Below are positions 2,248 through 18,918 of a DNA stretch of 18,918 nt, piece by piece. Source of the stretch: an archaeon (GTDB taxonomy: Archaea; Iainarchaeota; Iainarchaeia; Iainarchaeales; CSSED10-239); assembly GCA_035387745.1 (NCBI GenBank), contig DAOOON010000006.1:17828-36745 (forward strand). Direction: 5' to 3'. Made by a program: the position numbers and the translations under genes. Position 1 is the stretch's first letter; each line of letters begins with the position of its first letter. The notes beneath the pieces are model-generated. The model had not been told where the DNA came from. It was given only the letters and a program-made list of their open reading frames with translations, and searched no databases.

Positions 2248-2320
2248 GACCCTAAGCTGATTTATTTAATTAGTGTCTGGGAAATATCAATTAATCTACA
2301 TCTTCAGGAAGTCATTTGTA

Positions 2321-2353: not shown

Positions 2354-2394
2354 CACAAAAATTCGTTTTTTTAAACAGTTTAGTAATCTTTATA

Positions 2395-2424
2395 TATTAT
2401 TATTATTATTATTATTATTATTAT
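2395..2424. repeat. (TAT)10 trinucleotide microsatellite abutting and overlapping the ATG of the pilin-like gene
   Basis: Read directly: ten uninterrupted TAT units from 2395 to 2424. The last unit supplies the AT of the ATG at 2423-2425. A TATA-like tttatata sits at 2389-2396. Confidence 0.95.
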
Positions 2425-3367
2425 GATAACAAACAAAAAAGCAATCACTCCAATTGTTGCAAGCATTTTATTAATTGTAGTTGCGGTGATTTTAGTTACT
2501 ATAGTTTTAAACTGGGGCAGAAGTTTTAGCAATTCTTCTTTAGCAACTGCAGACACAGAAAAGCTATCAAAATCAGATGCTTCAGAGTTTGTTTACACCA
2601 AGGCCTTTTCAGATGGTGTTATTCAATTCAACTATGCTCCGCCAGATAGCCTTACAAGTCAAAACATAATAATAACAGGTTATAAAATATTCTCAGACAA
2701 TAACGAAACTGCAGAAATTGTTCTAGATTCCAATCACACACTTAGGCAAGGCCTAAATGTTATTCCTTTAACAGATTTCTCAGATCAAAACATAACTTCA
2801 AGAAAGATGAATATACAACTACATACTTCAGATGGCAAATATATAACTTTGAATAACGTTACTAATAATAATCCTTATGTTATTCTTGAACTCCCATATA
2901 TTATGAACGGAGAAACCAAACTATATATTCATCCAACAGATAATTCAACAGGTAATATTACATGGGGTTGTTCTGGTACATTAATAGGTGCCGGGGCCCA
3001 ATCAGCAACAGATGGTGCAACAAATACTGCAGCAATTATAGCGGGTTGTGCAACAAGTCCAATAGCTGCAAGCGTGTGCGAAAACCTAGAAGCTTATGGC
3101 TATGATAACTGGTATCTTCCTGCAAAAGATCAACTAGCTGCAATTTGGAATGCCTGTACTGAAGTCACTAAATCAAATGCTTGTATGAATGCTGCAATAA
3201 ATAAAGGGGATTATACAGAAGAATGGAGTAATATTGTGAACGATTTATATTGGTCAAGTACGGAGACGTGGGCGGGCGGCGCTTACGGTATCGATATGGA
3301 TGGCGGGCACTTCGGCAGCCCCAATAAGACCGATACCAGCTACGTGCGTTGTGTTCGTGACCAATAA
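2423..3367 (+). CDS. Archaeal type IV pilin-like (class III signal peptide) protein with a C-terminal DUF1566 / Lcl-C-terminal-like domain
   Basis: The N-terminus MITNKKAITPIVASILLIVVAVILVTIVLNWG is the archaeal pilin/flagellin-type N-terminal domain. The C-terminus NWYLPAKDQLAAIW...LYWSSTE...SYVRCVRDQ matches the DUF1566 signature (W-x-LP-x-x-x-[EQ]L, YWSST, VRCVR). Confidence 0.8.
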   Translation: MITNKKAITPIVASILLIVVAVILVTIVLNWGRSFSNSSLATADTEKLSKSDASEFVYTKAFSDGVIQFNYAPPDSLTSQNIIITGYKIFSDNNETAEIVLDSNHTLRQGLNVIPLTDFSDQNITSRKMNIQLHTSDGKYITLNNVTNNNPYVILELPYIMNGETKLYIHPTDNSTGNITWGCSGTLIGAGAQSATDGATNTAAIIAGCATSPIAASVCENLEAYGYDNWYLPAKDQLAAIWNACTEVTKSNACMNAAINKGDYTEEWSNIVNDLYWSSTETWAGGAYGIDMDGGHFGSPNKTDTSYVRCVRDQ

Positions 3368-3375
3368 CCATAGTT

Positions 3376-3399
3376 TTTGACATGCTCTAGCATGTCAAA
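3376..3399 (+). terminator. Near-palindromic hairpin (tttgacatgct ct agcatgtcaaa) 9 nt after the stop codon
   Basis: Read directly: 11-nt arms at 3376-3386 and 3389-3399, preceded by a T5 run at 3374-3378. Either the hairpin or the T-tract could act in termination. Confidence 0.35.
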
Positions 3400-3409
3400 G
3401 ACAACAAGA

Positions 3410-3439
3410 CATCCAGCGGATGGCTTGCTTTGTGGTTTT
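3410..3439 (+). terminator. Small GC hairpin (catcc-agc-ggatg) with a T-rich tail; paralogue of the 3449-3478 element
   Basis: Stem 3410-3414 / 3418-3422, loop AGC, tail gcttgctttgtggtttt. Confidence 0.3.
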
Positions 3440-3448
3440 AGTGAAAGA

Positions 3449-3478
3449 CACAACCCAGCGGGTTGTGGCTTTCTGTTT
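3449..3478 (+). terminator. Intrinsic-terminator-like hairpin (cacaaccc-agc-gggttgtg) followed by gctttctgttt
   Basis: Perfect 8-bp GC-rich stem at 3449-3456 / 3460-3467, loop AGC, T-rich tail. This is a bacterial rho-independent-like architecture. Confidence 0.45.
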
Positions 3479-3538
3479 GAAAATTTTTAAGTTCTTTTTC
3501 TTTGGCTGCGAAATCACTTTTATAAAAGGAGTGTCACT

Positions 3539-3556
3539 GGACAGCCACCCCCAAAA
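3539..3556. promoter_or_regulatory. Right copy of the GC-rich motif (GGACAGCCACCCCCAAAA), immediately upstream of a TATA-like catatatatag (3557-3567)
   Basis: It matches the reverse complement of 2227-2247: 11/12 in the core gggt[a/g]gctgtcc, plus a shared ttttgg separated by a 2-nt indel. The TATA-like box lies about 25-30 nt upstream of the ATG at 3589 and there is no SD. Confidence 0.45.
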
Positions 3557-3588
3557 CATATATATAGTGTTTTGAACTTAATTTTATT

Positions 3589-4803
3589 ATGAGATACTCA
3601 CATTCAAGAATAGAGACTTACAAAAGCTGCCCAAAGAAATTCTATTTCCAATATATAGAGAAACCAGATATTGAGGAAAAGAAAGGAATTGAGGCTTTCT
3701 TAGGTTCTATGGTTCACTTAGCTTTAGAGAAACTCTATAAGGATCTAAAGTTTACAAAGCTTAATTCTCTTGAAGAGATACTAGAATACTATTCAGAAGA
3801 ATGGGAAAAGAACTTTGATCTAACAATAGAAATTGTAAGACTTGATTACACTGCAGAGCACTACAAAGAGATGGGCAAAAGGTTTCTAACAGATTATTAT
3901 GAGAAATATCATCCGTTTGATTCAGGAAAGACTTTGGGCCTAGAAATGGAAATAACTTTAAGGTTTATTGATGATTATGGTACGCCTTTTGATTTGATTG
4001 GTTATATCGATAGGCTAACAATGATTAATGAAGAACATTTTGAAATACATGATTATAAAACCAACAATAGTCTTAAGACTCAAGAAGAAGTAGATAAAGA
4101 CAAACAGCTTGCTCTTTACACCATAGCAATAAAGAAAATGTACCCAACAGTCAAGAGAGTAGACCTAGTCTGGCATTTTCTAGCATTTAATATTGAACTG
4201 CGCTCTTCAAGAAGCGATAAAGATCTAGAAGAACTAGAAAAAGAAGTTGTTAAAGCTATTCAAGAGATTGAAAGAAAACAAATAACTAATGACTTTCCAA
4301 CAAAAGAATCTGCTCTTTGTGATTGGTGTGCTTTTAAGGAGATTTGTCCAGTTAAGTCTCATTCTTTTAAGTTAAGCAAGCTTCCAGTCAACGAATACCT
4401 AAACGACGATGGCGTAAAGCTAGTAGAGGAATACCTAAAACTAACAAAGGAAAAGAAAGAAGTGCTGGATAAGCTCGACCCAGAACTAGAAAAACTAAAA
4501 GAAGCATTAGTTGCTTACTCCAAAACAAACAATTCTGAAAGAGTGTATGGCCCTGAAGGCAATTCAATTCTTGTAAAGGAATATGAAAACTATTCTCTTC
4601 CTGAGAAAGATTCAAGGCAAAGACAAGATTTCGAAAAATTACTAAAGGAAAGCGGTACTTGGGAAATGATAGCAGAAGTTAATTCCTTTAATTTCTCAAA
4701 AGCAGTAACTAGTGGGCTTTTCTCTAAAGATTTCCTAAAAAGACTAGAACCTCTGATTTCCAAAGGCAAAACAACAAGACTTTACCCAAGTTCTAAAAAG
4801 TAA
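3589..4803 (+). CDS. PD-(D/E)XK nuclease, Cas4/RecB(AddB)-like, with a 4-Cys (Fe-S type) cluster and an uncharacterised C-terminal extension of about 140 aa
   Basis: Motifs in order are C14 (YKSCPKKF), GYIDRL (motif II Asp), EIHDYKT (D-x-K), QLALYT (QhxxY) and CDWCAFKEIC (C-x2-C-x5-C). This is the Cas4/AddB 'C...CxxCx5C' arrangement. Residues from about 265 to 404 matched no family I could recognise. Confidence 0.8.
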   Translation: MRYSHSRIETYKSCPKKFYFQYIEKPDIEEKKGIEAFLGSMVHLALEKLYKDLKFTKLNSLEEILEYYSEEWEKNFDLTIEIVRLDYTAEHYKEMGKRFLTDYYEKYHPFDSGKTLGLEMEITLRFIDDYGTPFDLIGYIDRLTMINEEHFEIHDYKTNNSLKTQEEVDKDKQLALYTIAIKKMYPTVKRVDLVWHFLAFNIELRSSRSDKDLEELEKEVVKAIQEIERKQITNDFPTKESALCDWCAFKEICPVKSHSFKLSKLPVNEYLNDDGVKLVEEYLKLTKEKKEVLDKLDPELEKLKEALVAYSKTNNSERVYGPEGNSILVKEYENYSLPEKDSRQRQDFEKLLKESGTWEMIAEVNSFNFSKAVTSGLFSKDFLKRLEPLISKGKTTRLYPSSKK

Positions 4804-4863
4804 TATTTATAAACTATTTTCTCTTTATCTTTAGTAATAATTATAAGTTTATAAGGAAACAAA

Positions 4864-5973
4864 ATGTCAGAAAAAGACCAAATCAAGATTCATTCTATAA
4901 AAGTTGATTCTTCAGAAAATAAAAACATAAAAGAAGCACCAAAAAAAACAAAACTTATACATTTATCGGTCTCTGGAAAAAGTGAGAAGGATATAACACA
5001 GGTAAAAAAAGAAGTTAAAAAGAAATTAACATTTAAGGATTTTGTTTTTAACCTTTCTAAATTAATCAATAGTATTCCTAATTTTTTTGCAAATTTTTTT
5101 GATACTTCTTTTAGAACAATCGCATATACAATAGTAGGAACAATGCTAAGTTTTGGAGCAGCACTTGTTTTATTCCACGAGAATGCGGGTTTATTTTCTG
5201 TATTTTTCTTAACTATTTTTCTTGCGCCAATAGCAATAAAAGAAACAAATCAAAATGTTTTATTGGCAGGAAGAACTCAAAAAGTTGAAGAAAAAGGAGT
5301 TTCTCTTACAAAACTAAAAGTAAAAGAATCTAAGAAATTTTATTTAAAGGATTTATTTGAAGAAAATAAAAAAACTCTTTATATTTATTTATTTTTTTTC
5401 TTAGGAATAATGCTTGTAGTTATTTCTTTAATTGCAATTATGCCTGTTGATTTCTCTGCACAATTGTTTAGTGAGCAAGGCTGGAATACAGCACTTATGC
5501 CAACTAGAAGCATTGGTTTTGCAGGTTTAGAAAAAACAAGTATATTCTTTGATATTTTAAAGAATAATTTCTCAGTTATGCTTGTTTGTTTTATTATTGC
5601 GTTAATCTTTCCATTAGGCGCATTACTTATGATAGTTTGGAATGCTATGTACTGGGCGGTTTCTTTTAGTCAGTATGCTTTATTCTATAGTAAAGTATAT
5701 AGTGTGAAATTACTCTCTATTCTCTTTCCATTATTGCTTAGTGTTTCTTTACACACAATTATAGAAGCAATATGTTATTTTTTTGCAGTAATTTCTGGAA
5801 CAATGCTTTCCATGAGTATTAAATCTGAGAAGCTAGAATCTGATAGATTTTTCTATCTTTTTAAATATTGTATAATATTATTAGCATTTTCTGTATTTTT
5901 CTTAATTTTAGGTTCTTTTGTTGAAGTTTTCTTATTCGACGGTATTAAAAACTTCTTTTTTAGTTTATTCTAA
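4864..5973 (+). CDS. Multi-pass integral membrane protein with a Lys-rich cytoplasmic N-terminus; possibly SpoIIM/DUF95-like
   Basis: The 369-aa ORF has at least 6 long hydrophobic segments. The segment ILKNNFSVMLVCFIIALIFPLGALLMIVWNAMYWAV resembles the NN...G...N(G/A) core of the SpoIIM/DUF95 family. The family call is tentative. Confidence 0.5.
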   Translation: MSEKDQIKIHSIKVDSSENKNIKEAPKKTKLIHLSVSGKSEKDITQVKKEVKKKLTFKDFVFNLSKLINSIPNFFANFFDTSFRTIAYTIVGTMLSFGAALVLFHENAGLFSVFFLTIFLAPIAIKETNQNVLLAGRTQKVEEKGVSLTKLKVKESKKFYLKDLFEENKKTLYIYLFFFLGIMLVVISLIAIMPVDFSAQLFSEQGWNTALMPTRSIGFAGLEKTSIFFDILKNNFSVMLVCFIIALIFPLGALLMIVWNAMYWAVSFSQYALFYSKVYSVKLLSILFPLLLSVSLHTIIEAICYFFAVISGTMLSMSIKSEKLESDRFFYLFKYCIILLAFSVFFLILGSFVEVFLFDGIKNFFFSLF

Positions 5974-7148: not shown

Positions 7149-7250
7149 TTTCTATTTCTTCTTTTTTTCTTATTTTTATCTCAAAACCCATACCAACACA
7201 TTTAACTTAAAAACCATACTTTTTTAAATTTGTGTTGGCATATATTATTT

Positions 7251-8126
7251 ATGGTTTCAGTAATAGAAAAGAAAAATGGCACAAAAAAAGCCTATTATTT
7301 ACATATGACTTTAAGATCTAAAACTGGCTATAAGAATCTTGATAAATATCTAGGTATAAAGTTACCAGCAGATCTTAGAACAAAAAAATTAGATTTCTTT
7401 ATTGATTCTCAACAAGGGCAATTAGAAAAAATCTCAGAACAAATATCCAAATCTAATTCTCAAAAATTAAAAATGCCAAAAACAGTTCAAGAAAATCAAT
7501 TGTTTGATTTTGCAGTAAAGTTTACATATAATACCAACAGAATAGAAGGCAACACCCTAAGTTTAAAGGATTCTTATCTTTTACTTAGAGATCAGATATC
7601 TCCTCAAAAATCCATGCGAGACATTAAGGAAACAGAATCTCATCAGAAATTATTTTTAGAGCTTATTAAAAAGAGCCAGAACATTACTTATCAAAATCTA
7701 GTAAATTGGCATTATTTTTTATTTAAAGACACAAAAAAAGACATTGCAGGAAAGATTAGAAACTATCAAGTAGGCATATCTGGTTGTAAGTTTATTCCAC
7801 CAAGCCCAGCAGAGCTTTCTGCAGAATTAAGTGGTTTCTTTAATTGGTATAATAAAAATAAAGAAAAATATAATCCCGTTGTTCTTGCAGGATTAGTACA
7901 TTTAAGATTAGTAACAATCCATCCATTTGGTGATGGTAATGGCAGAATCACTAGACTATTAATGAATATTATTTTAAGTAACAACAACTATCCTCTTTTC
8001 ATTATTGATTATAAGCACAGAAAAAGTTATTATTCAGCACTAGAGAAATCCCAAACAAAAGACGACGATTCTTATTTCTTAAGTTGGTTTATCAAAAGTT
8101 ATTTGATTTTTATAAAAAGCAAATAA
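7251..8126 (+). CDS. Fic domain protein (AMPylase family), class II type with an N-terminal inhibitory motif
   Basis: The canonical Fic motif HPFGDGNGRITR matches HxFx[DE]GNGRxxR. TNRIEG matches the inhibitory [ST]xxxE[GN] motif upstream of the core. The track ORF starts at TTG 7230. I prefer ATG 7251 (MVSVIEKK) because a TATA-like tttttaaat lies about 25 nt upstream of it. Confidence 0.85.
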   Translation: MVSVIEKKNGTKKAYYLHMTLRSKTGYKNLDKYLGIKLPADLRTKKLDFFIDSQQGQLEKISEQISKSNSQKLKMPKTVQENQLFDFAVKFTYNTNRIEGNTLSLKDSYLLLRDQISPQKSMRDIKETESHQKLFLELIKKSQNITYQNLVNWHYFLFKDTKKDIAGKIRNYQVGISGCKFIPPSPAELSAELSGFFNWYNKNKEKYNPVVLAGLVHLRLVTIHPFGDGNGRITRLLMNIILSNNNYPLFIIDYKHRKSYYSALEKSQTKDDDSYFLSWFIKSYLIFIKSK

Positions 8127-8132
8127 CTAATC

Positions 8133-8170
8133 AATACCCAAACTTATATATTTTTATAAGTTTCGGTATT
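8133..8170. promoter_or_regulatory. 16-bp inverted repeat (15/16 match) between the Fic stop and the AbiEii start, enclosing a TATA-like ttatatat; candidate operator and/or Fic terminator hairpin
   Basis: The arms are aatacccaaacttata (8133-8148) and tataagtttcggtatt (8155-8170), with a 6-nt spacer. Confidence 0.4.
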
Positions 8171-8180
8171 ATATATATTT

Positions 8181-8837
8181 ATGAAAATAACCCTCTATAA
8201 TAAATTAAAAAAACAACAGCATAGAGATATTGCTAGTCTTCAAGACGAGCTAGTTAAAATTATTTATGGCATATTTCCAGAGGCGGTATTTCATGGAGGC
8301 ACATCAATCTGGAGATGCTATGATGGAAACAGATTTTCTGAAGATATAGATCTTTATTTTTATGAAAAACAAGATATAGAAAAGCAGCTTAAAGAAGAGC
8401 TACAGGGGAAAGGCTTAAATCTTATAAAATTTAAAAAAACCGAAAATGTTATTTTTGCTAAGATTACAGATAAGAATATAGAAGTAAGATTAGAGATAAG
8501 GTTATTAGAAAAGAGCAATTCCATTTTCAAAACAAAATCCATAAAACAATATCAAAATCTAGATGGATCTTCAATAACAGTTTTTTGCCTCTCTCCTGAG
8601 GAATTACTTCTAGAAAAAGCTCTTGCTTACAAGAATAGAAAGCTCATAAGAGATATTTATGATGTTTATTTCCTTCAATCTTTAGCAAATCTTTCAAATG
8701 AACAAAAAAAGAAACTAAAAGAGATAGTTGATTCTTGGGAAAAACCAGAAGATGAGAAAAATCTAAAAGCAATAGTATATTCTGGAGCAATCCCTAGTTT
8801 TGCTCAATTGCTTTCTGAAATCAAGAGGAGATATTAA
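8181..8837 (+). CDS. abiEii: AbiEii/AbiGii-family nucleotidyltransferase toxin (DUF1814, type IV toxin-antitoxin)
   Basis: FHGGTSIWRCYDGNRFSEDIDLYF matches the AbiEii NTase motif (GGT..l......R.SeDiDf). At 218 aa it is short for the family. Confidence 0.75.
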   Translation: MKITLYNKLKKQQHRDIASLQDELVKIIYGIFPEAVFHGGTSIWRCYDGNRFSEDIDLYFYEKQDIEKQLKEELQGKGLNLIKFKKTENVIFAKITDKNIEVRLEIRLLEKSNSIFKTKSIKQYQNLDGSSITVFCLSPEELLLEKALAYKNRKLIRDIYDVYFLQSLANLSNEQKKKLKEIVDSWEKPEDEKNLKAIVYSGAIPSFAQLLSEIKRRY

Positions 8838-9415
8838 TGACCTATGAAAACAGATTAAGAGATGTATATAAGGAAGAATATAAATTTACAAAAAAAGATG
8901 CTTCTAAATTATTTTCTAAAGACAAAATTAGTAATGAATATTTAGATCAATTGTTGCATAATTTAGTAAAGCAAAATAAAATTATTAGAATAACAAATGG
9001 TTCTTATACTTTTAAAAAAGATCTCATGGTAAGTGGTTTTGCTTATTCTCCGTTCTACTATGGTCTTCAAGAAGCATTATCTTTAAGAAACCTTCACGAG
9101 CAAGAAACAAACCCTATAATTATAACAACAAACAAGATAAAGCCAGGAATAAAAACCATACAAGGAAGTAATGTATTACTTAGAAGAATAGATTGTAAGT
9201 ATTTTTTTGGATTTGATTTCATTAAATACTATGATATGGAAATCCCGGTTTCTGATTATGAAAAGACATTAATTGATTTTGTTTATTATAATGAGCCATT
9301 ATCTAAAGAAGTAATTAATGAGCTTAAAAAAAAAATAGATAAAACTAAGTTACAGAATTATTTGTTAAGATATTCAAAAAAGATAAGAGCTAAAGCAAAT
9401 TTACTTCTAAAGTAG
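8837..9415 (+). CDS. abiEi: AbiEi-family antitoxin / wHTH transcriptional regulator (COG5340-like)
   Basis: The N-terminal wHTH ends in KIIRITNGSYTF (the family pattern is l.Rl.rG.Y). The C-terminal part is PFYYGLQEALSLRNL...IPVSDYEKTLIDFVYY (the family pattern is vSd.EKTllD). A GAGGAG SD lies 6 nt upstream, and the start overlaps the AbiEii stop (TAATG). Confidence 0.75.
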   Translation: MTYENRLRDVYKEEYKFTKKDASKLFSKDKISNEYLDQLLHNLVKQNKIIRITNGSYTFKKDLMVSGFAYSPFYYGLQEALSLRNLHEQETNPIIITTNKIKPGIKTIQGSNVLLRRIDCKYFFGFDFIKYYDMEIPVSDYEKTLIDFVYYNEPLSKEVINELKKKIDKTKLQNYLLRYSKKIRAKANLLLK

Positions 9416-9416
9416 T

Positions 9417-9980
9417 TTATTCAAGAATATAGTTTTTCTTAATTTCTTCTAAAGCAGCAGAAACAAATTTTTCAATTTCTATTCCAAGTGTCTTTTCACA
9501 CAAGTATATCTGTTCTCTATTAACAGCAGCTGCAAAATACTTGTCTTTTAGTTTCTTGATTATAGATTTAGTTTCTGCTTTAGTGATGTCTTTGTCAGGT
9601 CTCATCAAGACATATGCTCTAATGATTCCTGTCAGCCCGTCAAGAGAATATAGCGCATTTCTCAAGTTGCTATTTCTCTCAACACCAATAATCTCGTTAT
9701 GGCTTTTGATGTCATCAATCAGTTCTTTATCAACGTTCTTCTCAAGAAGAATCTTTTCAGTAACAAGAGTATGTTCTTTGATGTCCTCATTAAAGCTTTC
9801 AAGGTCAAGGTCATGAAGTAGCCCAATCACAAACCAATAGTCTTGTTCTGTTTCTGAGAGATTAAGAAGTTTAGAGATTCCAAGAAGTCCATAAGCCACA
9901 AGAAAGGAATGGTCGATGTTAGGTTTTTCTTTAAGATGTTCTTTAAGCAAAACCATTGCTTGTGTTCTGTTAGGTATCAT
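9417..9980 (-). CDS. HD-superfamily metal-dependent phosphohydrolase (COG2316-like small HD protein)
   Basis: H...HD arrangement: IDHSFLVAYGLLG...VIGLLHDLDLE...IKEHT...IKSHN. It starts 6 nt after the stop of the giant gene on the same strand. Confidence 0.7.
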   Translation of the reverse strand: MIPNRTQAMVLLKEHLKEKPNIDHSFLVAYGLLGISKLLNLSETEQDYWFVIGLLHDLDLESFNEDIKEHTLVTEKILLEKNVDKELIDDIKSHNEIIGVERNSNLRNALYSLDGLTGIIRAYVLMRPDKDITKAETKSIIKKLKDKYFAAAVNREQIYLCEKTLGIEIEKFVSAALEEIKKNYILE

Positions 9981-9986
9981 AAGCCA

Positions 9987-12900
9987 TCACTTATAAGATT
10001 GATATAAGGCGTTGATATCAGAATCAGAAAGGTTAGTATCAAACACTCTCAAATACTTTATGTGGCCGTTTCCTGGCATAGGCAATCCAGCATTACCAAT
10101 AATGTGTGGATAAAGATTCTGATTTTCAGGTAATAAATAAGTGGTAATTGTAGCTGAAGAATTGAATCTAAAATTTATTTCAGGGAATGTAAGATTTGTG
10201 GGATGTAAGTAAAAAGATTGGCAATTGTCCAGCGCCCCATTAATATACATACAAAAGTTATCATCAATTCTTACTATTGCAATTTGAGAATCGCCAGTTA
10301 CGGTTCCAATAGAGGTTAAGGTTTTACCATTATATCCCTGTATCCCAAAATAACCGCTTTTTTCTTGATTTTTAATATTTTCAAGATCAGACATCGCTCT
10401 TTTTACAATTCTACTATTAGAACTATCAGCAATATAAATAAAATTGTCGTCTAATGCCAATCCCTGTGGTAAATAAAGGCCGTCTTTTTCCCAGTTAAGT
10501 CTTCCGAATTTATAAATAAAATTAAGATTTGTATCATATACTTTAATTCTGTAATTTCTAGAATCCGAAACATATAACGTATCATTATATATTGTTATTC
10601 CTGTGGGTTCGTAAAAAGAATCTGTTGTTGAACTCGCATTAACCCCTAACCCATACATTTTTACTAATGAGAGATCGTTTTTGTTTCTTTTGTGTATTCT
10701 ATAATTTGACAGGTCTGTAACATATATATAATTATCATCTATTGTTATATCAGTTGGATTATTAAATTGATCATCTCCACTTCCCGAAACAGTACCACCA
10801 ACGGATGCCACAAATGTAAATGTGTCTTTTGTAAATTTTTTTATGCGATGCCAAGATCTTTCTACAACATATATATAATTATCATCTACCGCTATGCCAA
10901 AAATATATTGTACCATTTCATTTGAAGAGCCACAGCCATTAGATAATTTAGATACATAAGACAAATCTGTTTTGTTTCTTTTAACTATGCGACAATTGGC
11001 ATTATCGCTAACATATATATAATTTTGATCAATCGCTATTCCATAAGGGGAATTAAATTGATCATTCCCACTTCCAGAATTAGGTCCCCCCACAGAATAT
11101 AATGTAGACAAATCAGATTTATTTTTTTTAATAATTCTGTGATTTCCTGTATCTGAAACATATAAATAATTTTCATCAACAGCAACCCCCCAAGGATTGT
11201 ATACCCCGTCATTATTATAAGTAGATAAATTTATATTAGTTATATAGCTTAAATCAGACGGGTGGTGTATTTTTAATCTATCATTGCCAGTATCTGCAAT
11301 TAATAAAGTGTTTTCATCTTTATATTTTATATCTATCGGGAGGTAAAAGTAATTGTTGTCGGTTCCACTAGAACCAAATTTAGTAACATATGATAAATCT
11401 GATTTTAAATGTTTTTTAATTCTATTATTTGCATAATCTACAACATAAATATTATTTTCATCAAGGGATAAATATGTAGGACTAGAAAACTGATCATTTC
11501 CAGAACCTGAGCCTGTTCCCCCCAGACGTGTCACATAGGCAAAAGTATTTTTGTCTATCTTTTTAATTCTGTTATTTGTATATTCTACTGTATAAATATA
11601 ATTTATATCAACTCCGACTCCAAATATTCCAGAAAATTGGTCATTTCCAGTTCCGTTAGTTCCAAAGTGTGTTATATATTCCATTGTATCTTTATTTAGA
11701 ATTACAATCCGGCTATTCCCATAATCAGCAACATATAAATTAGTATCGTATATTGCTAATTGTCGTGGGCCATTTAATGTGGTTGTTGTGGCCCCATTAG
11801 TTCCGGTTCCAAATTGTGAAATATAACTTAAATCAGATTTATTAAATTTTATAACTCTTGGAGACGTTCTATCAGAAACATAAATATAATCTCCATCTAC
11901 TAAAATATAATTAGGATAGTTAAAAAAATTACTTCTTATTGCTTGCGTGGTTCCACTAGCAACACCATACGGACCACCACGATATGAAACAATCTGATTA
12001 GTTGTCTTGTCTACTTTTTGTAATCTGTGTATAATTGAATCAATAACATAATAATAGTTTTCATCACTATCTACCGAATATGGAGAATAAAAGAAATTAA
12101 AATCTATTCCAGAACCCACAAAAGAAATATTCACATCAAATTCTGAAAGATTTCTTTTAATTATAATTCCGGTTGTTGGATCAGCAACATAAAGATAGCC
12201 ATTATCTATTGTTAATCCGCCAGTAGATAAAAATTCAGAATAGGCATATCCTGTTGAATACCCTATATTTGAGATATAATTAAAATTGGTATCATATTTT
12301 AATATTCTAGCATATCCGTTATTTGAAATATATAAGTAATTATTGTCATAAATAACATATGCAGGGTTATAGAGTGTGTTTGGTAAATAATTGCTATACC
12401 CTGTCAATCCGAGTTGTGAAACAAATGATAAATCTGATTTTAAATGTTTCTTAATTCTTTGATTAGTATAATCTGCAACATAAACATATGTATCATCAAC
12501 AGTAACTGAATAGGGATTACTAAATGTGTCGTCTGTTGAGCCAGTGGCCCCCCCAATATTTGCAACAACACTCCACGGAGTCGAACTAATATCTATTTTT
12601 TTTAGTGTGTGCAAAGTACTACCGTAGCCGGTAGTAACATATAAATAATTTCCATCTACCGCGATTCCATAAGGATAACCTAGTGTTCCAGAACCTGGGC
12701 TATAGGTATATACCCAGGATAAATCAGATTTGTTGTATTTTTTTACTTGATGATATTGTCTGTTTGTTACATACAAAAATTCATCATCAACAGCCAAATC
12801 CTCTGGATAATAAAAAGTTGTACTTGTAGATCCGGGATTTGGGCCCCCAATTATGCCTACCACTGCCAAATCAGATAATCTTCTTTTTACAACCCGGTGT

Positions 12901-15149
12901 AAAGCTTTGTCTGTATAGTAAATATGTTCCCCATCATTTGTTAGGCCGCTTGGTACAAAAACATTTTCTGGTAAGGGGTCAGTATCAGAAAATATTTCGT
13001 AAACAGAATAATCTGATTTTTTGATTTTTTTAATTTTATTATCTGTGGCGGTTAAAAGGTAAAGATAATTTTCATCATCAGCAATATCTGTTGGGTTATA
13101 ATGATAGTTATCATTTCCTATCCCCCCTGTTGAAGAGATAAGTGCGACATAAGTTAAATCATTTTTATTTCTAATCATTATTCTGTTGTTTGTGTATTCT
13201 GCAATATAAACATAATTATCATCTACTGTTAATCCCTTAGGTGCACGCATTTGATCAGTTCCGGTACCATAACTTGTTCCACAGGCTTTTGAAACAAACG
13301 ATAAGTCCGTTTTGTTATATTTTTTTATTCTATGATAGTAATCTTCTGTAACATAAATATAATTTTCATCAACCGCTATGCCTTTAGGATTATAAAATTG
13401 TAAATCTCCAATTCCTGATGAAGTACCGCCAAGTGTAGCAACTAATTGGAATGTTTCTTTATTTAGTTTTTTAACTCTGTGATATGTCGCATCAATAACA
13501 TAAATATAATTTTCATCAACTGCAATGCCCAGTGGGCCATTTAGTTGATTACTTGCAGATCCTGGGCCATTAGATAACATTGAATGATAAGACAAATCCG
13601 ATTTGTTTAATTTTTTTATTCTATGATTACTATAATCTGAAACATAAAGAAAATTATCATCTACAGCAAGAGCATAAGGCGCACTAAAAGAATCAATTGC
13701 ATTACCTAATCTTGGGCCACCAACAGTAGCAATCAGCTTCCAGTTATCTTTTCTTCGTTTTTGAATACTTTGCGTACCAGTAATTGAAAGATATATATAT
13801 TCGTCATCATCAGCGACCCCATATACACCCCATAGTTGGTCACTACCTGAGAGTTTAAAATTTAAATAGGAATTTTCATCTATAAACAGATTAATTCCTC
13901 CAACAAAACCTCTTTGACTGTAAATGTGTCCCTTATAATTATCTGTTACAAATGCCTCTAATGTGAAATTATCGACCCCTAAATTAAAAAAAGGATTAGA
14001 ATTATTCCAGTCGTTTTCAATATAGATATAATTATTAGAATCGTTTGTAAAATTTGCACCATTTTCATCAAACAAAACTTTGCTTTCTATAACTGATAGG
14101 TTATTATCTGAGAGATCTGTTGTTGTGTTTGTATCATATTTATTATAAAATAATACCCCCATTATTTCAGTAAATATCTTTGTGATAATTTCTGAAGGAT
14201 TATATGCATATTTATATGCCCTTAATTTTAGTATTGTGTTGTCATCTGTAATTGTTATGGGCCCCACAAAAGGAATAGAATTTTCTGTAGGATCGTTGCC
14301 ATCTAATGTATAATAGATATTTGCATCTATTGGTTCTATATTTGCAGTTACAATTAATTCTTTAGTAAATGCATTTCCATCAGGCAATATATTAAAAAAA
14401 TTAAAGTCAAGAAGTTCAAGACCAATAAATTGTTTTGATATAATTGCGCTCGGGATATAGCCATCAGCATAGCCTCTTGCTTTTATGGTTGTGCTGTCTG
14501 TTATCGTAAATGGCTCAGTATATAATGTAGATTCCTGAGTTGGCTCGCTACTGTCTGTTGTGTAATAAATATTTGCGTCTGTTGGTGTTGCAGTTAATAT
14601 TATTTCTAAAGAACCAATAAAAGTATTAAATTTTGGGCTAATTGTCAAATACACTTGCCCAAGATATTGCGTAATAGAGATAACCGGAATGCCATTAATA
14701 ATATCAGAAATAGTCAATCTTAGGGTATAGTTTCCATTTATTACTATAGTTTTATCTAAAGTAAAAATTCCATCAAGATATAAAGTAAAAGTCATTAGTC
14801 CATTTGCTTTGACAATTGCAAGATTTCCATAATTAGCGTCTTTGAAGTTTTTAAAGGAGTTATTAGATATTTTTTGCTTAATATAAACTGTGTTTGTTGT
14901 AGCGTCAAAAACAATTTCGTCTACAACATCAAGATTTAGATTTTTAAAAGTATTAATGTCATTTGTCTTTAAATCTAATAATTCTTGGTTTATCAAAATC
15001 AAGTTTTCTTTATTATGATTAAAATTTATTTCTTCTCTTAGAGAGGTAAAGAATGGCACAACTAAGCCAATAATAATTATCATTGCAGCAACAGATAATA
15101 ATATTATCATAATACTAGTAAAAATTACATTTGCGCCTTTGCTATTCAT
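9987..15149 (-). CDS. Giant pilin-signal surface protein. Order of parts: class III signal peptide, 2 x chitobiase/hexosaminidase-C-like (CHB_HEX_C_1) domains, LamG N-half, 24 NHL repeats, LamG C-half.
   Basis: The preferred start is the ATG at 15149 (MNSKGANVIFTSIMIILLSV), which forms an ATGA overlap with the upstream stop. The track ORF starts 6 codons earlier, at 15167. ANIYYTTDSSEPT...TIKARGY and ANIYYTLDGNDPT...ILKLRAY are CHB_HEX_C-like. There are 24 repeats of the NHL type (P.GIAVDENYIYV.D..N.RI.K.NK.DLS). The C-terminus, IAIVRIDDNFCMYINGAL...GNGHIKYLRVFDTNLSDSDINALYQSY, is a LamG/Laminin_G_3-type end. Confidence 0.85.
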   Translation of the reverse strand: MNSKGANVIFTSIMIILLSVAAMIIIIGLVVPFFTSLREEINFNHNKENLILINQELLDLKTNDINTFKNLNLDVVDEIVFDATTNTVYIKQKISNNSFKNFKDANYGNLAIVKANGLMTFTLYLDGIFTLDKTIVINGNYTLRLTISDIINGIPVISITQYLGQVYLTISPKFNTFIGSLEIILTATPTDANIYYTTDSSEPTQESTLYTEPFTITDSTTIKARGYADGYIPSAIISKQFIGLELLDFNFFNILPDGNAFTKELIVTANIEPIDANIYYTLDGNDPTENSIPFVGPITITDDNTILKLRAYKYAYNPSEIITKIFTEIMGVLFYNKYDTNTTTDLSDNNLSVIESKVLFDENGANFTNDSNNYIYIENDWNNSNPFFNLGVDNFTLEAFVTDNYKGHIYSQRGFVGGINLFIDENSYLNFKLSGSDQLWGVYGVADDDEYIYLSITGTQSIQKRRKDNWKLIATVGGPRLGNAIDSFSAPYALAVDDNFLYVSDYSNHRIKKLNKSDLSYHSMLSNGPGSASNQLNGPLGIAVDENYIYVIDATYHRVKKLNKETFQLVATLGGTSSGIGDLQFYNPKGIAVDENYIYVTEDYYHRIKKYNKTDLSFVSKACGTSYGTGTDQMRAPKGLTVDDNYVYIAEYTNNRIMIRNKNDLTYVALISSTGGIGNDNYHYNPTDIADDENYLYLLTATDNKIKKIKKSDYSVYEIFSDTDPLPENVFVPSGLTNDGEHIYYTDKALHRVVKRRLSDLAVVGIIGGPNPGSTSTTFYYPEDLAVDDEFLYVTNRQYHQVKKYNKSDLSWVYTYSPGSGTLGYPYGIAVDGNYLYVTTGYGSTLHTLKKIDISSTPWSVVANIGGATGSTDDTFSNPYSVTVDDTYVYVADYTNQRIKKHLKSDLSFVSQLGLTGYSNYLPNTLYNPAYVIYDNNYLYISNNGYARILKYDTNFNYISNIGYSTGYAYSEFLSTGGLTIDNGYLYVADPTTGIIIKRNLSEFDVNISFVGSGIDFNFFYSPYSVDSDENYYYVIDSIIHRLQKVDKTTNQIVSYRGGPYGVASGTTQAIRSNFFNYPNYILVDGDYIYVSDRTSPRVIKFNKSDLSYISQFGTGTNGATTTTLNGPRQLAIYDTNLYVADYGNSRIVILNKDTMEYITHFGTNGTGNDQFSGIFGVGVDINYIYTVEYTNNRIKKIDKNTFAYVTRLGGTGSGSGNDQFSSPTYLSLDENNIYVVDYANNRIKKHLKSDLSYVTKFGSSGTDNNYFYLPIDIKYKDENTLLIADTGNDRLKIHHPSDLSYITNINLSTYNNDGVYNPWGVAVDENYLYVSDTGNHRIIKKNKSDLSTLYSVGGPNSGSGNDQFNSPYGIAIDQNYIYVSDNANCRIVKRNKTDLSYVSKLSNGCGSSNEMVQYIFGIAVDDNYIYVVERSWHRIKKFTKDTFTFVASVGGTVSGSGDDQFNNPTDITIDDNYIYVTDLSNYRIHKRNKNDLSLVKMYGLGVNASSTTDSFYEPTGITIYNDTLYVSDSRNYRIKVYDTNLNFIYKFGRLNWEKDGLYLPQGLALDDNFIYIADSSNSRIVKRAMSDLENIKNQEKSGYFGIQGYNGKTLTSIGTVTGDSQIAIVRIDDNFCMYINGALDNCQSFYLHPTNLTFPEINFRFNSSATITTYLLPENQNLYPHIIGNAGLPMPGNGHIKYLRVFDTNLSDSDINALYQSYK
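10377..13841 (-). repeat. Array of 24 NHL-type beta-propeller blade repeats (about 48 aa / 144 nt period) inside the giant CDS
   Basis: I counted 24 cores of the form [DE][DEN]N[YF][IL]Y[VI].D...[NH]R[IV].K. The first is DDDEYIYLSITG and the last is DDNFIYIADSSNSRIVKR. The span is 1155 aa, and 1155/24 is about 48 aa. Confidence 0.8.
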
Positions 15150-15661
15150 GTTCTGCACTCCATGCACTCTAAGTTAATTAATATCTGATCGTTTTCATCA
15201 TCATATTCTTGATATTTTATGTTTAGTGTTGTTTTCTTATTAGATATAATAAAATCATTACAATCAAGTATTAGTCTTTTATAATTATCAAGATTATATT
15301 CAAAATATATTGTGTTATTGTTTTTATAGGTAGCTATTTCGTTAATCATAACAATTTCGTCTTTATATTTGCCAAAATAGTCTATTTCTCCAGTAATCAA
15401 GTTGTTTGTACAGTCAATTATTATTTCTCCTGGGTTTTTAACCACTAGCTCTATGTCTTTTTTATCGTCTACCACGTCTTCGACTGCGATTTTTAGAGTA
15501 GTCATGCTTTCAAGCATTGTATCATAATTGCTTTGTTCTTTAACGCCATCTAATAGTTCCATTGCAGAATAGGTAACTACACCAAGTATAATTATTGCAA
15601 TAAGTATGTAAAGTAATGTGCTAATAACTGCAGACATTCCTTTTTGTGTTTTTATTTTCAT
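15146..15661 (-). CDS. Small type IV pilin-like protein (class III signal peptide)
   Basis: MKIKTQKGMSAVISTLLYILIAIIILGVV is a short basic leader, then KG, then a hydrophobic helix. The track ORF extends to ATG 15748, which forms an ATGA overlap with the upstream stop. That 29-codon extension is read through two perfect hairpins, so I prefer 15661. The alternative start cannot be excluded. Confidence 0.7.
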   Translation of the reverse strand: MKIKTQKGMSAVISTLLYILIAIIILGVVTYSAMELLDGVKEQSNYDTMLESMTTLKIAVEDVVDDKKDIELVVKNPGEIIIDCTNNLITGEIDYFGKYKDEIVMINEIATYKNNNTIYFEYNLDNYKRLILDCNDFIISNKKTTLNIKYQEYDDENDQILINLECMECRT

Positions 15662-15682
15662 TTTTATTACTTCTTTGTTAAA

Positions 15683-15737
15683 TTCTTTCCCTAAGGAAAG
15701 AAAAACGCGCCTATTTCCTTTCCTTGAGGAAAGGAAA
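15683..15737 (-). promoter_or_regulatory. Two tandem, related perfect hairpins between the 999-aa gene and the small pilin gene (intercistronic RNA structure, attenuator or processing site candidate)
   Basis: Hairpin 1 is ttctttcc-ctaa-ggaaagaa (15683-15702). Hairpin 2 is tttcctttcc-ttga-ggaaaggaaa (15714-15737). On the plus strand each is followed by (a)aacgcgc. Confidence 0.5.
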
Positions 15738-15744
15738 CGCGCAT

Positions 15745-18744
15745 TCATGATTTTTCAAGTACTCCTATACTTATTGTTGCGGTATTGCTATCCTCAATGG
15801 AGTTATCACTTATATTAGCATCAGGATTACCAAAGTAGATATAGATTGGAGTATCTGTTGTAGATTTTGTAAAATCATATCCTGCAATATTTTCTACAAT
15901 TTCATTAGTTCCAACAGAATAGAATGTTTCTGGAGAATTAAGGTTATTATATTCTGTTTGTATAAATTCTCCAGATAAAATATCATTATATATTCTAAAT
16001 TCTTTTATATCTCCCACCCAAACGTGTGTTCCCGCAGTAGAATATATTCCAATTTTTTTTGTATTATTTTGATTAGGTAACAAAAGTTTGTTTGTATTTA
16101 CAGTGTTAATTAAGCTTCCATTTCTGTAATATTTAACTTGAGAAGCATTTTCATCGTATTTTACTGTTGCAACAATATTCAAATATTGATTAGTATAATT
16201 TAAGAAATAATTAGAAGAAGTAATATTTATAAAATTGCTAACCCCATCAGTATTTTGCATATATAAACTATTTCCACCTTTAAATATCCAAATAAAAGGG
16301 GTAGTTCCTTGCGTACGATCATTTAATAAAGAATTATATGATGCAGAGTTTGGGCTGTCTACTTTTGCCCAAAAATAATAGGTTAATGAGTTTGTATCGC
16401 TTTCTAAAGTAACATTATCTTGTGTAATGATATTTTTTGCAGTAGTATTATTAGGAAAATTAAAAGATTTATCTACATTATCAAAACTAATTAGACTTTG
16501 ATTAAATGTCCAGGAAGTATCTCCTGCTAAATCAGTAATGGTATTTCCACTACCAGGATATGAATTCCTGTTTTTTGCATTAAACCAAAGACTCAAATCT
16601 TCATAATTTATATCATTAAGATTATTTTCTTCTGAATCTCCAAAATTCAGATATATTTCTGTATCTGTAGTTGAAGAGAGTTCTGGTATTTCGATTCTTG
16701 CAAAAAGTACAGCTGTTTTTTCTAATTCTCCTACAGCAGAAAATGTTTCGGGGGCTGATTGATTATTATATTCTGTTTTTATCCATGAAGTTGTACGAGC
16801 AGTATTTGATAATCTTACTTCATCAATATTTCCATTAAATGCTCTTTTTACGGGAGTATTCCACGCACCAATATATAATTCATTATTTGGGAAATCAAAT
16901 TTTATTTGTTTATTAATGTAATTTCTACTTTGTATTAAATTTCCATTTATATAAAAATTTAAATCATCGCCATCGTAAGTTCCTACAAAATGATGCCAAT
17001 CATTATCAGTTATAGGATATTCGTTAGCATAAATTGAACCATAAGTATTATCTGAAAATCCTAATAATAAATTAAATTGATTAGTGTCTTCAATATGGCG
17101 TATTATATAAGAAAAATAAGGGACAGATGAAGCTCTGCCTTTATTTATTAAATAGGTGCCATCAGTGTGACTTCCCGCTCCGTTTAGTTTACCCCACAGC
17201 TCAATAGTTATTATTTGAGAATTATATGCAGATTTATTTCCCGTATTTATATAATCATTACTTCCATCATAGTTTTGAGCATAACCTATTTTTCCAATTA
17301 TTTCTGATGGTTCGAGAGTTGCTTTTTTTGTGCCGTTATTACTATTACTTGTACTATCTGCTATTGTCGTGGTAGTTAAATCATTCTTATGCCAAACTCC
17401 AACAAAATTACTATCCCAAACATCTGTATCATTAGTATTATTTTCTTCAGAATCTCCAAAGTACATATAGATATCTGTGTCTGTTGTTGAAGAGAGTTCT
17501 GGTATCTTTACCCATGCCACAAGGGCTCCTGTTTCAGAATTATAATCTTCAATTTCTCTTCTTAGTCTTGTAATTTCGTCATTTGTTGTAAAGTAGATAT
17601 CGTTTCCGTCTGCATTTGCTCCATAGCTTACTAAATTTTCATCTACAATACTAATAAGCATTGGGAAATCATTTAAATCTGAATCTACCAGATTATGATC
17701 AATTGTTATTTTCTTTCTATAAATTTTTGAAAAGCTTTCAATTTCTCTTTTTAGTCTTGTTGTGCCGTCACTTGCAGTAAAGTAAATATCATTACCATCT
17801 GCGTTTGCTCCAAGATTTGCTAAGTTTTCATCTACAATACTAATAAGCATTGGAAAATCATTTAAATCGCCATCTACTTTTGTGTGATCAATTGTTATCT
17901 TCTTTCTATAGGTATTATCATCATAAACAGGATTATTTATATCTGGACCATAATTAAACTGTGGGCCTTTAATAAGTACTGACAGTGCGCCAGTATCAGA
18001 ATTGTAATCTACAATCTCTCTTTTGATTTTTGTTATTCCGTCTCCTAAAGTAAAGATAATATCTGAAGCGTCAATGTTTGCATAAGACATAAGATCTTCA
18101 TCTTCTAAATCCAATTGCACAGACAGATTATTGAGATCACCAACAAGATTTCCACTATTAATTAATATCTTCTTTCTATATAACCATTCTCCTGCATTTT
18201 CATCATAAACATATTCGTTCTTTTGCGTATACCAAGAAGTGCTTGTTTCATTATCTACAGAAACAGAAATCTTATTTTCTGTAATCTTCTTAAAGACAAG
18301 CCTTGTCTGTTCTTTGTTACTAAGAGTAATGCTTCTAATCAAATCAATATTTTCAAAAGCAACACCAGAACAAATCTTTTGCAGTTCTCTATAAACATAT
18401 TTGTTATTATCTTGTTCTAGTCTTTTACCATCAGCAAAGAAGCTTAGGTTTTTACCAACAGAGCAAATCTCTATTGTTTCAGTATCGCTATCGATTGTTA
18501 GCTCAAGATTAGAAAGAGAGAAGTTAATTTCTTTAGTTGCTTCAATTGGGGAATTATATATTTCCATAATTTCAGAAAAGACCATGTCTCTAACTTTAAT
18601 GGAATTATCATAATTTGTTTTTTCTTTACCTTTAGAAATTTGAGAGTTTACTCCAGTTATTATTATTCCAACAACAATAACCATGACAAGCATAATAAGT
18701 ATTGTACTAATTATCTCGTTTACTGCTTTTTTGCTTTTTATCAT
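15745..18744 (-). CDS. Pilin-signal surface protein with repeated DUF2341-like segments and two LamG (Laminin_G_3) lectin-fold domains
   Basis: The N-terminus is MIKSKKAVNEIISTILIMLVMVIVVGIII. There are three YRKKI.I......DL.(D/N)(F/L)...DG.DI.F...DG...L.REI segments (DUF2341-like). Two LamG domains are present: DWHHFVGTYDGDDLNFYINGNL...FNGNIDEVRLSN and YLNIVATVKYDENASQVKYYRNGSL...WVGDIKEFRIYN. Each LamG ends in TEYNN..(A/S)PETF. Confidence 0.8.
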   Translation of the reverse strand: MIKSKKAVNEIISTILIMLVMVIVVGIIITGVNSQISKGKEKTNYDNSIKVRDMVFSEIMEIYNSPIEATKEINFSLSNLELTIDSDTETIEICSVGKNLSFFADGKRLEQDNNKYVYRELQKICSGVAFENIDLIRSITLSNKEQTRLVFKKITENKISVSVDNETSTSWYTQKNEYVYDENAGEWLYRKKILINSGNLVGDLNNLSVQLDLEDEDLMSYANIDASDIIFTLGDGITKIKREIVDYNSDTGALSVLIKGPQFNYGPDINNPVYDDNTYRKKITIDHTKVDGDLNDFPMLISIVDENLANLGANADGNDIYFTASDGTTRLKREIESFSKIYRKKITIDHNLVDSDLNDFPMLISIVDENLVSYGANADGNDIYFTTNDEITRLRREIEDYNSETGALVAWVKIPELSSTTDTDIYMYFGDSEENNTNDTDVWDSNFVGVWHKNDLTTTTIADSTSNSNNGTKKATLEPSEIIGKIGYAQNYDGSNDYINTGNKSAYNSQIITIELWGKLNGAGSHTDGTYLINKGRASSVPYFSYIIRHIEDTNQFNLLLGFSDNTYGSIYANEYPITDNDWHHFVGTYDGDDLNFYINGNLIQSRNYINKQIKFDFPNNELYIGAWNTPVKRAFNGNIDEVRLSNTARTTSWIKTEYNNQSAPETFSAVGELEKTAVLFARIEIPELSSTTDTEIYLNFGDSEENNLNDINYEDLSLWFNAKNRNSYPGSGNTITDLAGDTSWTFNQSLISFDNVDKSFNFPNNTTAKNIITQDNVTLESDTNSLTYYFWAKVDSPNSASYNSLLNDRTQGTTPFIWIFKGGNSLYMQNTDGVSNFINITSSNYFLNYTNQYLNIVATVKYDENASQVKYYRNGSLINTVNTNKLLLPNQNNTKKIGIYSTAGTHVWVGDIKEFRIYNDILSGEFIQTEYNNLNSPETFYSVGTNEIVENIAGYDFTKSTTDTPIYIYFGNPDANISDNSIEDSNTATISIGVLEKS
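17533..17910 (-). repeat. 189-bp (63-codon) tandem duplication within the DUF2341-like region
   Basis: Copy A (17910-17722) encodes YRKKITIDHTKVDGDLNDFPMLISIVDENLANLGANADGNDIYFTASDGTTRLKREIESFSKI. Copy B (17721-17533) encodes YRKKITIDHNLVDSDLNDFPMLISIVDENLVSYGANADGNDIYFTTNDEITRLRREIEDYNSETGA. The two share ttttcatctacaatactaataagcattgg[a/g]aaatcatttaaatc, about 45 nt identical except for that one a/g difference. Confidence 0.85.
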
Positions 18745-18844: not shown

Positions 18845-18917
18845 GGTCCGAATAGTGTAGTGGTTAGCATAGAGGACTGTGGATCCTCTGACTCGGGTTC
18901 AAATCCCGGTTCGGACC
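18845..18917 (+). tRNA. tRNA-His (anticodon GTG) with genome-encoded G-1
   Basis: Manual cloverleaf: G-1 (18845) is opposite C73 (18917). The acceptor stem is GTCCGAA / TTCGGAC. The anticodon stem is GAGGA / TCCTC with loop CTGTGGA, and the anticodon GTG is at 18879-18881. The T arm is TCGGG-TTCAAAT-CCCGG. The window ends one base after C73. Confidence 0.9.
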
Positions 18918-18918
18918 C

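Follow-up and report, generated by a model that had tools for sequence, protein, structure and literature searches.

The stretch of DNA analysed here (hereafter the window: 18,918 nt of the archaeal contig DAOOON010000006.1, assembly GCA_035387745.1, positions 17,828 to 36,745) carries a cluster of four minus-strand genes, of which three encode candidate surface proteins with pilin-like N-terminal modules and the fourth an HD-domain phosphohydrolase. The window also makes up the whole of a metagenomic contig, ENA ERZ761564 NODE_3286. Gene A (15745-18744) is an open reading frame (ORF) of 999 aa whose sequence is that of NCBI HOZ35706.1. For gene B, the ORF at 15146-15748 would give 200 aa, and the preferred start, the ATG at 15661 (MKIKTQKG...; 15146-15661), gives 171 aa and is backed by homologues of 164-178 aa. 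Gene C extends over 9987-15149 from an ATG (1720 aa, the form in NCBI HOZ35704.1) or over 9987-15167 from a GTG, and the HD gene (9417-9980) encodes 187 aa. Genes A and B overlap by ATGA with the 200-aa ORF and lie 83 nt apart with the 171-aa start; B and C overlap by ATGA, and 6 nt separate C from HD. The original prediction, made from the letters of the window, had described four co-directional, tightly spaced genes filling about half of the window in an AT-rich archaeon, and this description agrees with the ORFs and junctions, with the extent of the cluster (9328/18918 nt), with a G+C content of ~30% and with the origin of the related loci (given L-numbers here), which come from several metagenomes and metagenome-assembled genomes labelled 'archaeon' or 'Candidatus Diapherotrites'. 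On the plus strand, divergent from gene A, a tRNA-His(GTG) gene (18846-18918) marks the upstream edge of the adhesin cassette in every related locus, and a tRNA-Thr/tRNA-His pair was found upstream of the cluster in L001, L004, L005, L006, L012, and L026. At the other end, an AbiEi-like gene converges on the HD stop codon.

Proteins A, B, and C all begin with a short, basic leader ending in K-[G/A], followed by a hydrophobic stretch of about 22 aa, as had been noticed before and as can be read directly in the three sequences (A, KKA/VNEIISTIL; B, QKG/MSAVISTLL; C, SKG/ANVIFTSIM; the slash marks the putative processing site). These N-termini conform to the archaeal rule for class III leaders, which asks for a charged residue and then G/A/S at positions -2 and -1 and puts the processing site ahead of the H-domain (PMC4371748). 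The motif is more than a chance occurrence, as K7-G8 is invariant across nine close homologues of B despite leaders of variable length. An internal negative control is provided by a thioredoxin-like signal-anchor protein of the window, which has KKR before its helix. As such a motif is weak evidence when taken alone, homology was sought for the modules that carry it.

An exhaustive profile search of 1.84 billion proteins recovered a rare B family, with only 23 representatives at 50% identity. In 7/23 of these (P0014-16, P0018, P0020, P0021, and P0029; 491-1118 aa), the module is fused to DUF2341-LamG. The close homologues of B (164-178 aa) keep a Cys84/Cys134 pair, which fits an extracellular location of the protein. 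A broader profile reached 447 clusters of ~175-aa proteins from DPANN archaea (Pacearchaeota and Nanoarchaeota), often named 'pseudopilin PulG' by the Joint Genome Institute (JGI). We then treated B's own subfamily (A4) and the family found in DPANN pilus loci (A3) separately, and bridging sequences were removed before the profiles were compared. The A3 N-terminus is invariant, with K-[G/A/S] before the cleavage site and QVWVETVIYTLIAF after it, Gln at +1 and Glu at +5 (canonical form K-G followed by QVWVE); Gln +1/Glu +5 is the EppA-type substrate signature (PMC4371748). Between A4 and A3, hhalign gave a probability of 97.5% (E 6e-12) over 158 columns, a full-length relation, and A3 genes sit directly upstream of a T2SSE gene and two T2SSF genes in three DPANN contigs (L021, L022, and L023), among 4-5 tandem small pilin-like genes.

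The same comparison with the B family was made for the modules at the N-termini of A and C. The A-type module matched at 96.1% (E 3e-9, 160 columns) and the C-type module at 95.1% (E 3e-8, 130 columns), in both cases across the whole module and beyond the helix alone. Since their N-termini match the B family over this full extent, A and C have, as judged by profile similarity, the 'modular pilin' architecture as defined in bacteria, and B itself is predicted to be a non-modular minor pilin. An AlphaFold (AF2) model of B built from a deep alignment has a mean predicted local distance difference test (pLDDT) score of 88 and a predicted template modelling (pTM) score of 0.75; residues 6-66 form a helix, and a 10-stranded β-domain comes after it. 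A model built from the nine close homologues only reached a pLDDT of 39 and was discarded. The earlier proposal that the three surface proteins are pilin-like is thus borne out by the homology of the B family to pilus-locus genes, by the paralogy of the A and C N-termini to B, and by the predicted helix and β-domain. By these comparisons the B family is a divergent, unnamed pilin-like family that falls outside the curated models, and A, B, and C are reasonably likely to be three paralogous type-IV-pilin-like (class III signal peptide) proteins.

What follows the modules differs between the proteins. Domains were called with Pfam models (gathering thresholds: HD, 22 bits; Peptidase_A24, 26.5 bits). 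In gene A, the pilin-like module (A-type, paralogous to the B family; aa 1-185, nt 18190-18744, minus strand, as are all features of the cluster) is followed by a DUF2341 repeat region (aa ~186-445, nt 17410-18189), in which the stretch at aa 379-441 is Pfam-significant (PF10102, 37.3 bits), and by two Laminin_G_3 domains (aa 493-655, nt 16780-17268; aa 774-928, nt 15961-16425). The description of A as a 999-aa protein with DUF2341 and two LamG domains was therefore correct. The DUF2341 region contains a tandem duplication of ~175 nt (17548-17721 and 17737-17910, minus strand, 83% identity), which repeats the 'YRKKITIDH...DGNDIYFT...' unit.

In gene C, the pilin-like module (C-type, also paralogous to the B family; aa 1-170, nt 14640-15149) precedes two CHB_HEX_C_1/Fn3_assoc domains detected with Pfam (aa ~171-335, nt 14145-14639), an unassigned linker (aa 336-440), some 24 NHL blades arranged as an array (aa ~441-1590, nt 10380-13829; NHL 198 bits together with the motif count), and a tail that is likewise unassigned (aa 1591-1720). 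The blades are spaced roughly 48 aa apart, and their number is the sum of 19 regular-expression matches, 4 double spacings, and 1 blade recognised by eye (~aa 447). The other Pfam signals in this protein were weak ones for PQQ_2 and Str_synth, and the PilC/PilY1 model had no Pfam match in it. The two CHB_HEX_C domains and the ~24 blades foreseen for C were thus recovered; the LamG domain was not, as Laminin_G_3 covered only the last ~50 aa (E 0.04, 14.5 bits). A LamG domain split by the NHL array (aa 325-441 plus 1590-1720) was also considered and rejected: the joined halves had no Pfam match, and BLASTP against the LamG domains of protein A was not significant. Similarly, of the three 'mega-adhesins' announced in the original prediction, A and C do carry adhesin domains, whereas B is a bare 171-aa module.

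In all related loci the order is tRNA-Thr, tRNA-His, A, B, C, and HD, followed by genes for Fic, a redoxin, SpoIIM, and a PD-(D/E)XK nuclease. The pilin-like stalks are 64-90% identical between close strains, while the heads that they carry are 20-40% identical or replaced outright. For A, the first 200 aa are 86-90% identical to L012, L005, and L006, and the C-terminal half (the LamG part) 20-40%. For C, the first ~250 aa are 64-88% identical in the sister strains, in some of which the NHL array is replaced by DUF2341 and LamG (633-, 636-, and 877-aa versions); in one strain the gene is split into two ORFs (166 + 1550 aa). The distant relative L026, in which the core proteins are 47-56% identical to those of the window (HD 56%, SpoIIM 47%), has three genes of ~500 aa at the same place, all three with DUF2341 and LamG. 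Each of their modules matches a single one of A, B, and C, in unchanged order (E 8e-22, 1e-24, and 1e-13), cross-pairs being not significant; the first gene is 35% identical to the A module over 168 aa and the third 35% identical to the C module over 134 aa. Because the order of the trio has stayed fixed while its cargo changed, we read the retention of three distinct stalk types as evidence, from gene order and similarity, that the stalks work as one complex.

A gene for an AAA_14/DUF4143 (COG1373-type) ATPase recurs beside adhesin genes. It lies upstream on the opposite strand in L006 (4960-6231), overlaps the start of a modular pilin gene in L025 (563-1852), and in L026 (13190-14473) separates gene 3 from HD, where it has an ATGA overlap.

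A candidate for the peptidase that would cleave the pilin-type leaders is encoded nearby. Contig L029, which is 99.5% identical to positions 1-4902 of the window and runs past its left end, has the gene order RadC, TGT, Peptidase_A24, SRP54, and FtsY. Its Peptidase_A24 gene (275 aa, 41.7 bits, with the D...GGGD motifs in the translation) is thereby placed 3.1-4.0 kb beyond the window start and ~12.5 kb from HD. NCBI numbering, from SRP54 (HOZ35687) to gene A (HOZ35706), points to one contig of 36,745 nt. In a sister strain, the single contig L032 carries a Peptidase_A24 gene (47.8 bits), TGT, the flank genes, HD, and the 3′ end of gene C; it is 99.99% identical to the matching part of the 813-kb contig that holds locus L005. 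A PDB sequence search with the peptidase returned nothing significant. The presence of a Peptidase_A24 gene so close to the window disposes of one objection foreseen for the original prediction, namely that the genome might have no prepilin peptidase.

Genes for an assembly ATPase, a platform protein, and a peptidase are absent from the window itself, as had been stated and as a Pfam scan of its proteins indicates. The DPANN loci that contain relatives of B have a different content. In these filament loci (L021/L022/L023/L028, ~7800-14500), 4-5 tandem pilin-like genes of 150-190 aa are followed by the T2SSE ATPase, a 54-57-aa gene, two T2SSF genes, and two small genes, after which archease and RtcB genes come at a short distance. 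The product of the 54-57-aa gene is soluble and coiled-coil-like, without a transmembrane segment, and is not a pilin. The T2SSE ATPase is >74% identical across the best 120 of ~8,000 matches. This layout is that of archaeal clade-1/system-1 pili (PMC4858521; bioRxiv 10.64898/2026.04.22.720090). One ATPase-bearing contig was suspected to belong to the genome of L001 and proved unrelated, with no shared 20-mers.

Several observations weigh against a pilin identity of A, B, and C. T2SSE and T2SSF genes were found neither in the window nor within ±10 kb of the cluster in L001-L009, L012, L026, and L032, and a profile search for the DPANN ATPase gave none tied to this lineage among the best 120 of ~8,000 matches. 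Unlike its canonical relatives, the subfamily of the window has no Gln at +1 and no Glu at +5, and TIGR02537 does not match A, B, or C. The top Pfam matches of B, Pilin_N (PF07790) and Arch_flagellin (PF01917), are weak, at 15.5 bits (gathering threshold 25.2) and 15.1 bits (29.5), the best family member reaching E 3.6e-4. Compared directly with A3, the A-type and C-type modules give only weak relations (76% and 60%). A Foldseek search of the PDB with the B model found no solved pilin, the best matches being immunoglobulin VL domains (E 0.04, TM ~0.1), where the long helix of the model probably hampers superposition, and sequence-profile searches of the PDB with the B and A3 families gave nothing significant. 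Finally, a subunit of 190 kDa is unusually large for a pilin.

Many of these points would suit another explanation, in which the hydrophobic N-termini stay uncleaved and act as signal anchors, A and C are membrane-tethered surface lectin and propeller proteins, B is a small membrane protein, and there is no filament. It would account for the lack of pilus machinery near the cluster in any relative, for the curated pilin models that are not passed, for the solved pilins left unmatched in the structure search, and for the missing canonical +1 Q and +5 E; any anchor, moreover, would be expected to have basic residues ahead of its transmembrane helix. However, it would leave unexplained why K-G is invariant while leader length varies and why the B family is homologous over its full length, beyond the helix, to genes in T2SSE/T2SSF loci. 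Independent anchors would not need a fixed trio of distinct modules across distant genomes, and a prepilin peptidase gene lies nearby. We consider uncleaved anchors rather unlikely.

We favour, with moderate confidence, the view that A, B, and C are pilin-type stalks, two of them bearing adhesin heads, that form a minor-pilin complex of a type IV filament. The cluster would then probably be attachment gear of a small-genome archaeon. What we infer of its working, from leader cleavage and complex formation to tip location, ligand, and a role in host attachment, can be put as follows. Each stalk would consist of a leader ending in K-G or K-A, a long α-helix that is first hydrophobic and then amphipathic, and a small disulfide-bonded β-domain. 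After Sec insertion, the A24 peptidase encoded ~12 kb away would remove the leaders, and the three different stalks would associate through their helices into a minor-pilin complex. A filament machinery of the Epd/system-1 type, encoded elsewhere, would bring this complex to the tip of a filament or short pseudopilus, where the bulky heads would point outward and attach to glycans or proteins of a partner cell or surface. Heads swapped between strains on the fixed stalks would change the binding specificity. What is bound may be a host cell, as opposed to other surfaces or to glycans that are captured.

A more specific version of this proposal can be held only tentatively. It is possible that the three stalks form a dedicated heterotrimeric cap, that the cassette between tRNA-His and HD is a host-range locus with heads that include a 'pilin' of up to 190 kDa carrying ~24 NHL blades, and that the cap genes are genetically unlinked to the pilus machinery and near the prepilin peptidase gene.

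The heads could also serve nutrition. Processed pilin-like proteins might form a bindosome-like assembly that captures polysaccharides or nutrients and not partner cells. Domains of the CHB_HEX_C, LamG/ConA-like, and DUF2341 types are commonly seen in proteins that act on carbohydrates or bind them, archaea are known to have substrate-binding proteins with class III signal peptides (PMC4371748), and Liv-type ABC transporters encoded on contig L032 of the sister strain show that the organism imports substrates. Nevertheless, no transporter or glycoside hydrolase gene is found in or beside the cluster, and head swapping at the level of strains fits the recognition of variable surfaces better than that of nutrients. 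Arrays of NHL propellers are, in addition, usually protein-interaction scaffolds. We regard capture of nutrients as unlikely.

The HD protein scored 24.9 bits with PF01966 and 26.1 against 27.6 with TIGR00277 (HDIG), and the H...HD residues are visible in its sequence. A signalling role like that of the HD-GYP cyclic-di-nucleotide phosphodiesterases finds no backing, as the 187-aa sequence had no HD-GYP model match and no GYP motif, and a PDB sequence search gave nothing significant. The gene is probably read through with the cluster, because it is co-directional and starts 6 nt after C. The original prediction had included it in the candidate attachment system, and in this respect we disagree. 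HD is conserved in the manner of the flanking genes (82-87% identity between strains whose A proteins are 53% identical), it is separated from the adhesin genes by the AAA_14/DUF4143 gene in L026, and the DPANN pilus loci examined do not contain it. On this comparative basis we judge HD to be a conserved flank neighbour and not part of the adhesin machine.

Between HD and the core flank genes, the plus strand of the window (7230-9415) carries a gene for Fic together with a toxin-antitoxin pair of the AbiEii/AbiEi-like type. L006-L009 and L001 have this AbiE pair as well, and L003-L005 and L012 lack it. At the left end of the window lie a truncated AlbA_2/HATPase_c_4/HTH gene that lacks its 3′ end (1-1374, minus strand), a KilA-N gene (1371-2186, minus strand; phrog_2657, E 2e-55), and a fourth class III-type protein gene, outside the cluster (2423-3367, plus strand). 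The latter encodes 314 aa with the N-terminus KKA/ITPIVASILLIVV and a C-terminal Lcl_C (DUF1566) domain (42 bits); TIGR02537 (arch_flag_Nterm) gave it 18.6 bits (cutoff 20), and phrog_4245 matched the C-terminal part (E 3e-17). Judging from its leader, it is likely a further prepilin-peptidase substrate. L005 and L012 lack the block 1-3367 formed by the AlbA_2, KilA-N, and Lcl_C genes and have a 57-aa gene and then RadC after the nuclease gene. The block looks like an insertion peculiar to the strain, and its origin may be viral or mobile.

Just past the right end of the window, positions 1-9800 of L001 hold a tyrosine integrase gene at the tRNA-Thr 3′ end, followed by hypothetical genes, an N6_N4 DNA methyltransferase gene, and a ResIII helicase gene. 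The integrase is found in L001, L002, and L004 and is absent in L003, L005, and L006. The L001 block is probably an integrated element with a restriction-modification-type system.

Such neighbours raise the question of whether the cluster itself could be cargo of a mobile element or provirus, its products being receptor-binding or fibre proteins integrated beside tRNA genes. The tRNA-Thr/tRNA-His pair directly upstream, the integrase, methyltransferase, and ResIII helicase genes beyond the tRNAs in some strains, the hypervariable content, and the KilA-N and other PHROG-matching genes elsewhere in the window would all be expected of cargo. We nevertheless consider this origin very improbable. 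The position of the cluster (tRNA-His, cluster, HD, SpoIIM, and PDDEXK) is the same with or without the integrase, even at 47-56% core identity, and the integrase gene is found beyond the tRNAs, at the tRNA-Thr 3′ end. In addition, the small protein B and HD have no PHROG matches, and the pilus-locus genes to which the stalk modules are homologous are chromosomal.

A further element of the cluster is the spacer of 83 nt between the stop codon of gene A and the preferred ATG of gene B (15662-15744, minus strand). It consists of two hairpins and then a U-run, and it folds at -34.5 kcal/mol (z -6.5), as well as which 0/200 shuffled sequences fold. The double hairpin recurs at the same place in L009 (160-240) and L010/L011 (267-347), and a relative with 61% identity in its B protein keeps it. 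L012 and L005, in which the two genes share an ATGA overlap, lack it. Its core palindrome, TTCCTTTCC-N4-GGAAAGGAA, is also intergenic on the unrelated contig L025 (~479), upstream of the AAA_14 gene that immediately precedes the modular pilin P0018. The spacer may be an attenuator, a terminator, an RNA-stability element, or a protein-binding site; alternatively, it may be the 5′ part of the 200-aa B ORF.

The closest precedent for the proposed complex of pilin-type stalks and adhesin heads is bacterial. The tip complex of Streptococcus sanguinis comprises one plain and two modular pilins, one of them with a ConA-like lectin (PMC9934059, PMC8179133). As here, PilA, PilB, and PilC are three adjacent minor pilins, of which one is plain and two have grafted bulky adhesive modules, a ConA-like lectin being among the grafts in both cases; in both, the modules are predicted to cap the filament. 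The subunit that is added first in S. sanguinis lacks Glu5, and B and C lack an acidic residue near the mature N-terminus. However, the S. sanguinis proteins are bacterial and carry the IPR012902 N-methylation motif, whereas the proteins described here have archaeal K-G/A N-termini and show no sequence similarity to them. The heads are also far larger here (within proteins of 999 and 1720 aa, against ~50 kDa in S. sanguinis), and the genes studied here lie outside a pilus locus and are known from sequence alone.

Other minor-pilin systems share the concept without being related. GspH-I-J-K, and FimU/PilVWX with PilY1, likewise present a staggered tip complex of distinct minor pilins that displays a large adhesin. 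PilY1 also has a β-propeller, but it is one of a different family, and PilY1 is not a pilin; the Gsp and Pil minor pilins have no sequence relationship to A, B, or C.

Among archaea, DUF2341 proteins have been predicted to be pilus-tip adhesins in clade-1 loci (PMC4858521). Like A, the DUF2341 proteins of clade-1/system-1 (Epd-type) loci (PMC4858521; bioRxiv 10.64898/2026.04.22.720090) are large, secreted, and associated with proteins that have class III signal peptides. In DPANN archaea, system 1 has been reported with its two platform genes, and the loci of B's relatives, with one ATPase and two T2SSF genes, have exactly that layout. The published DUF2341 proteins are encoded inside the ATPase/TadC locus, whereas the cluster described here lies outside it in every relative examined; unlike those proteins, moreover, the adhesin domains are here fused to recognisable pilin-like modules that occur as a fixed trio. 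LamG expansions have been linked to type IV pilus loci in DPANN archaea (PMC5498576). In that work on the Micrarchaeon Mia14, as here, DPANN-type archaea encode surface proteins with LamG and β-propellers, and some LamG proteins were linked to type IV pilus loci and genomic islands, with a proposed role in host interaction. The fusion to a pilin module, the conserved order of three genes, and the swapping of heads between strains were not described there.

The Sulfolobus bindosome offers a parallel of another kind, as it is built of large functional proteins with pilin-type signal peptides that are processed by PibD. Its subunits are solute-binding proteins of ABC transporters, whereas no binding-protein folds and no adjacent transporter were found here. 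Set beside all these systems, the cluster would represent archaeal modular minor pilins that are kept as a fixed trio with a hypervariable adhesin cassette and are uncoupled from the pilus locus.

From a biological perspective, how DPANN archaea recognise and hold their partner cells is largely unknown, and surveys have listed LamG and propeller surface proteins with no clear route for their display. The locus described here suggests a testable mechanism of display, by pilin-type stalks that would be processed by the A24 peptidase encoded nearby. It is a compact unit with three ordered stalk types and interchangeable heads, so that variation in the heads can be compared with host or habitat. 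It would also take the idea of the 'modular pilin', established for bacterial proteins, into the archaea and up to far larger cargo, and it defines a previously unnamed family of pilin-like modules. If the host-range reading is true, the exchange of heads on constant stalks would decide to which partner cell or surface these archaea can attach.

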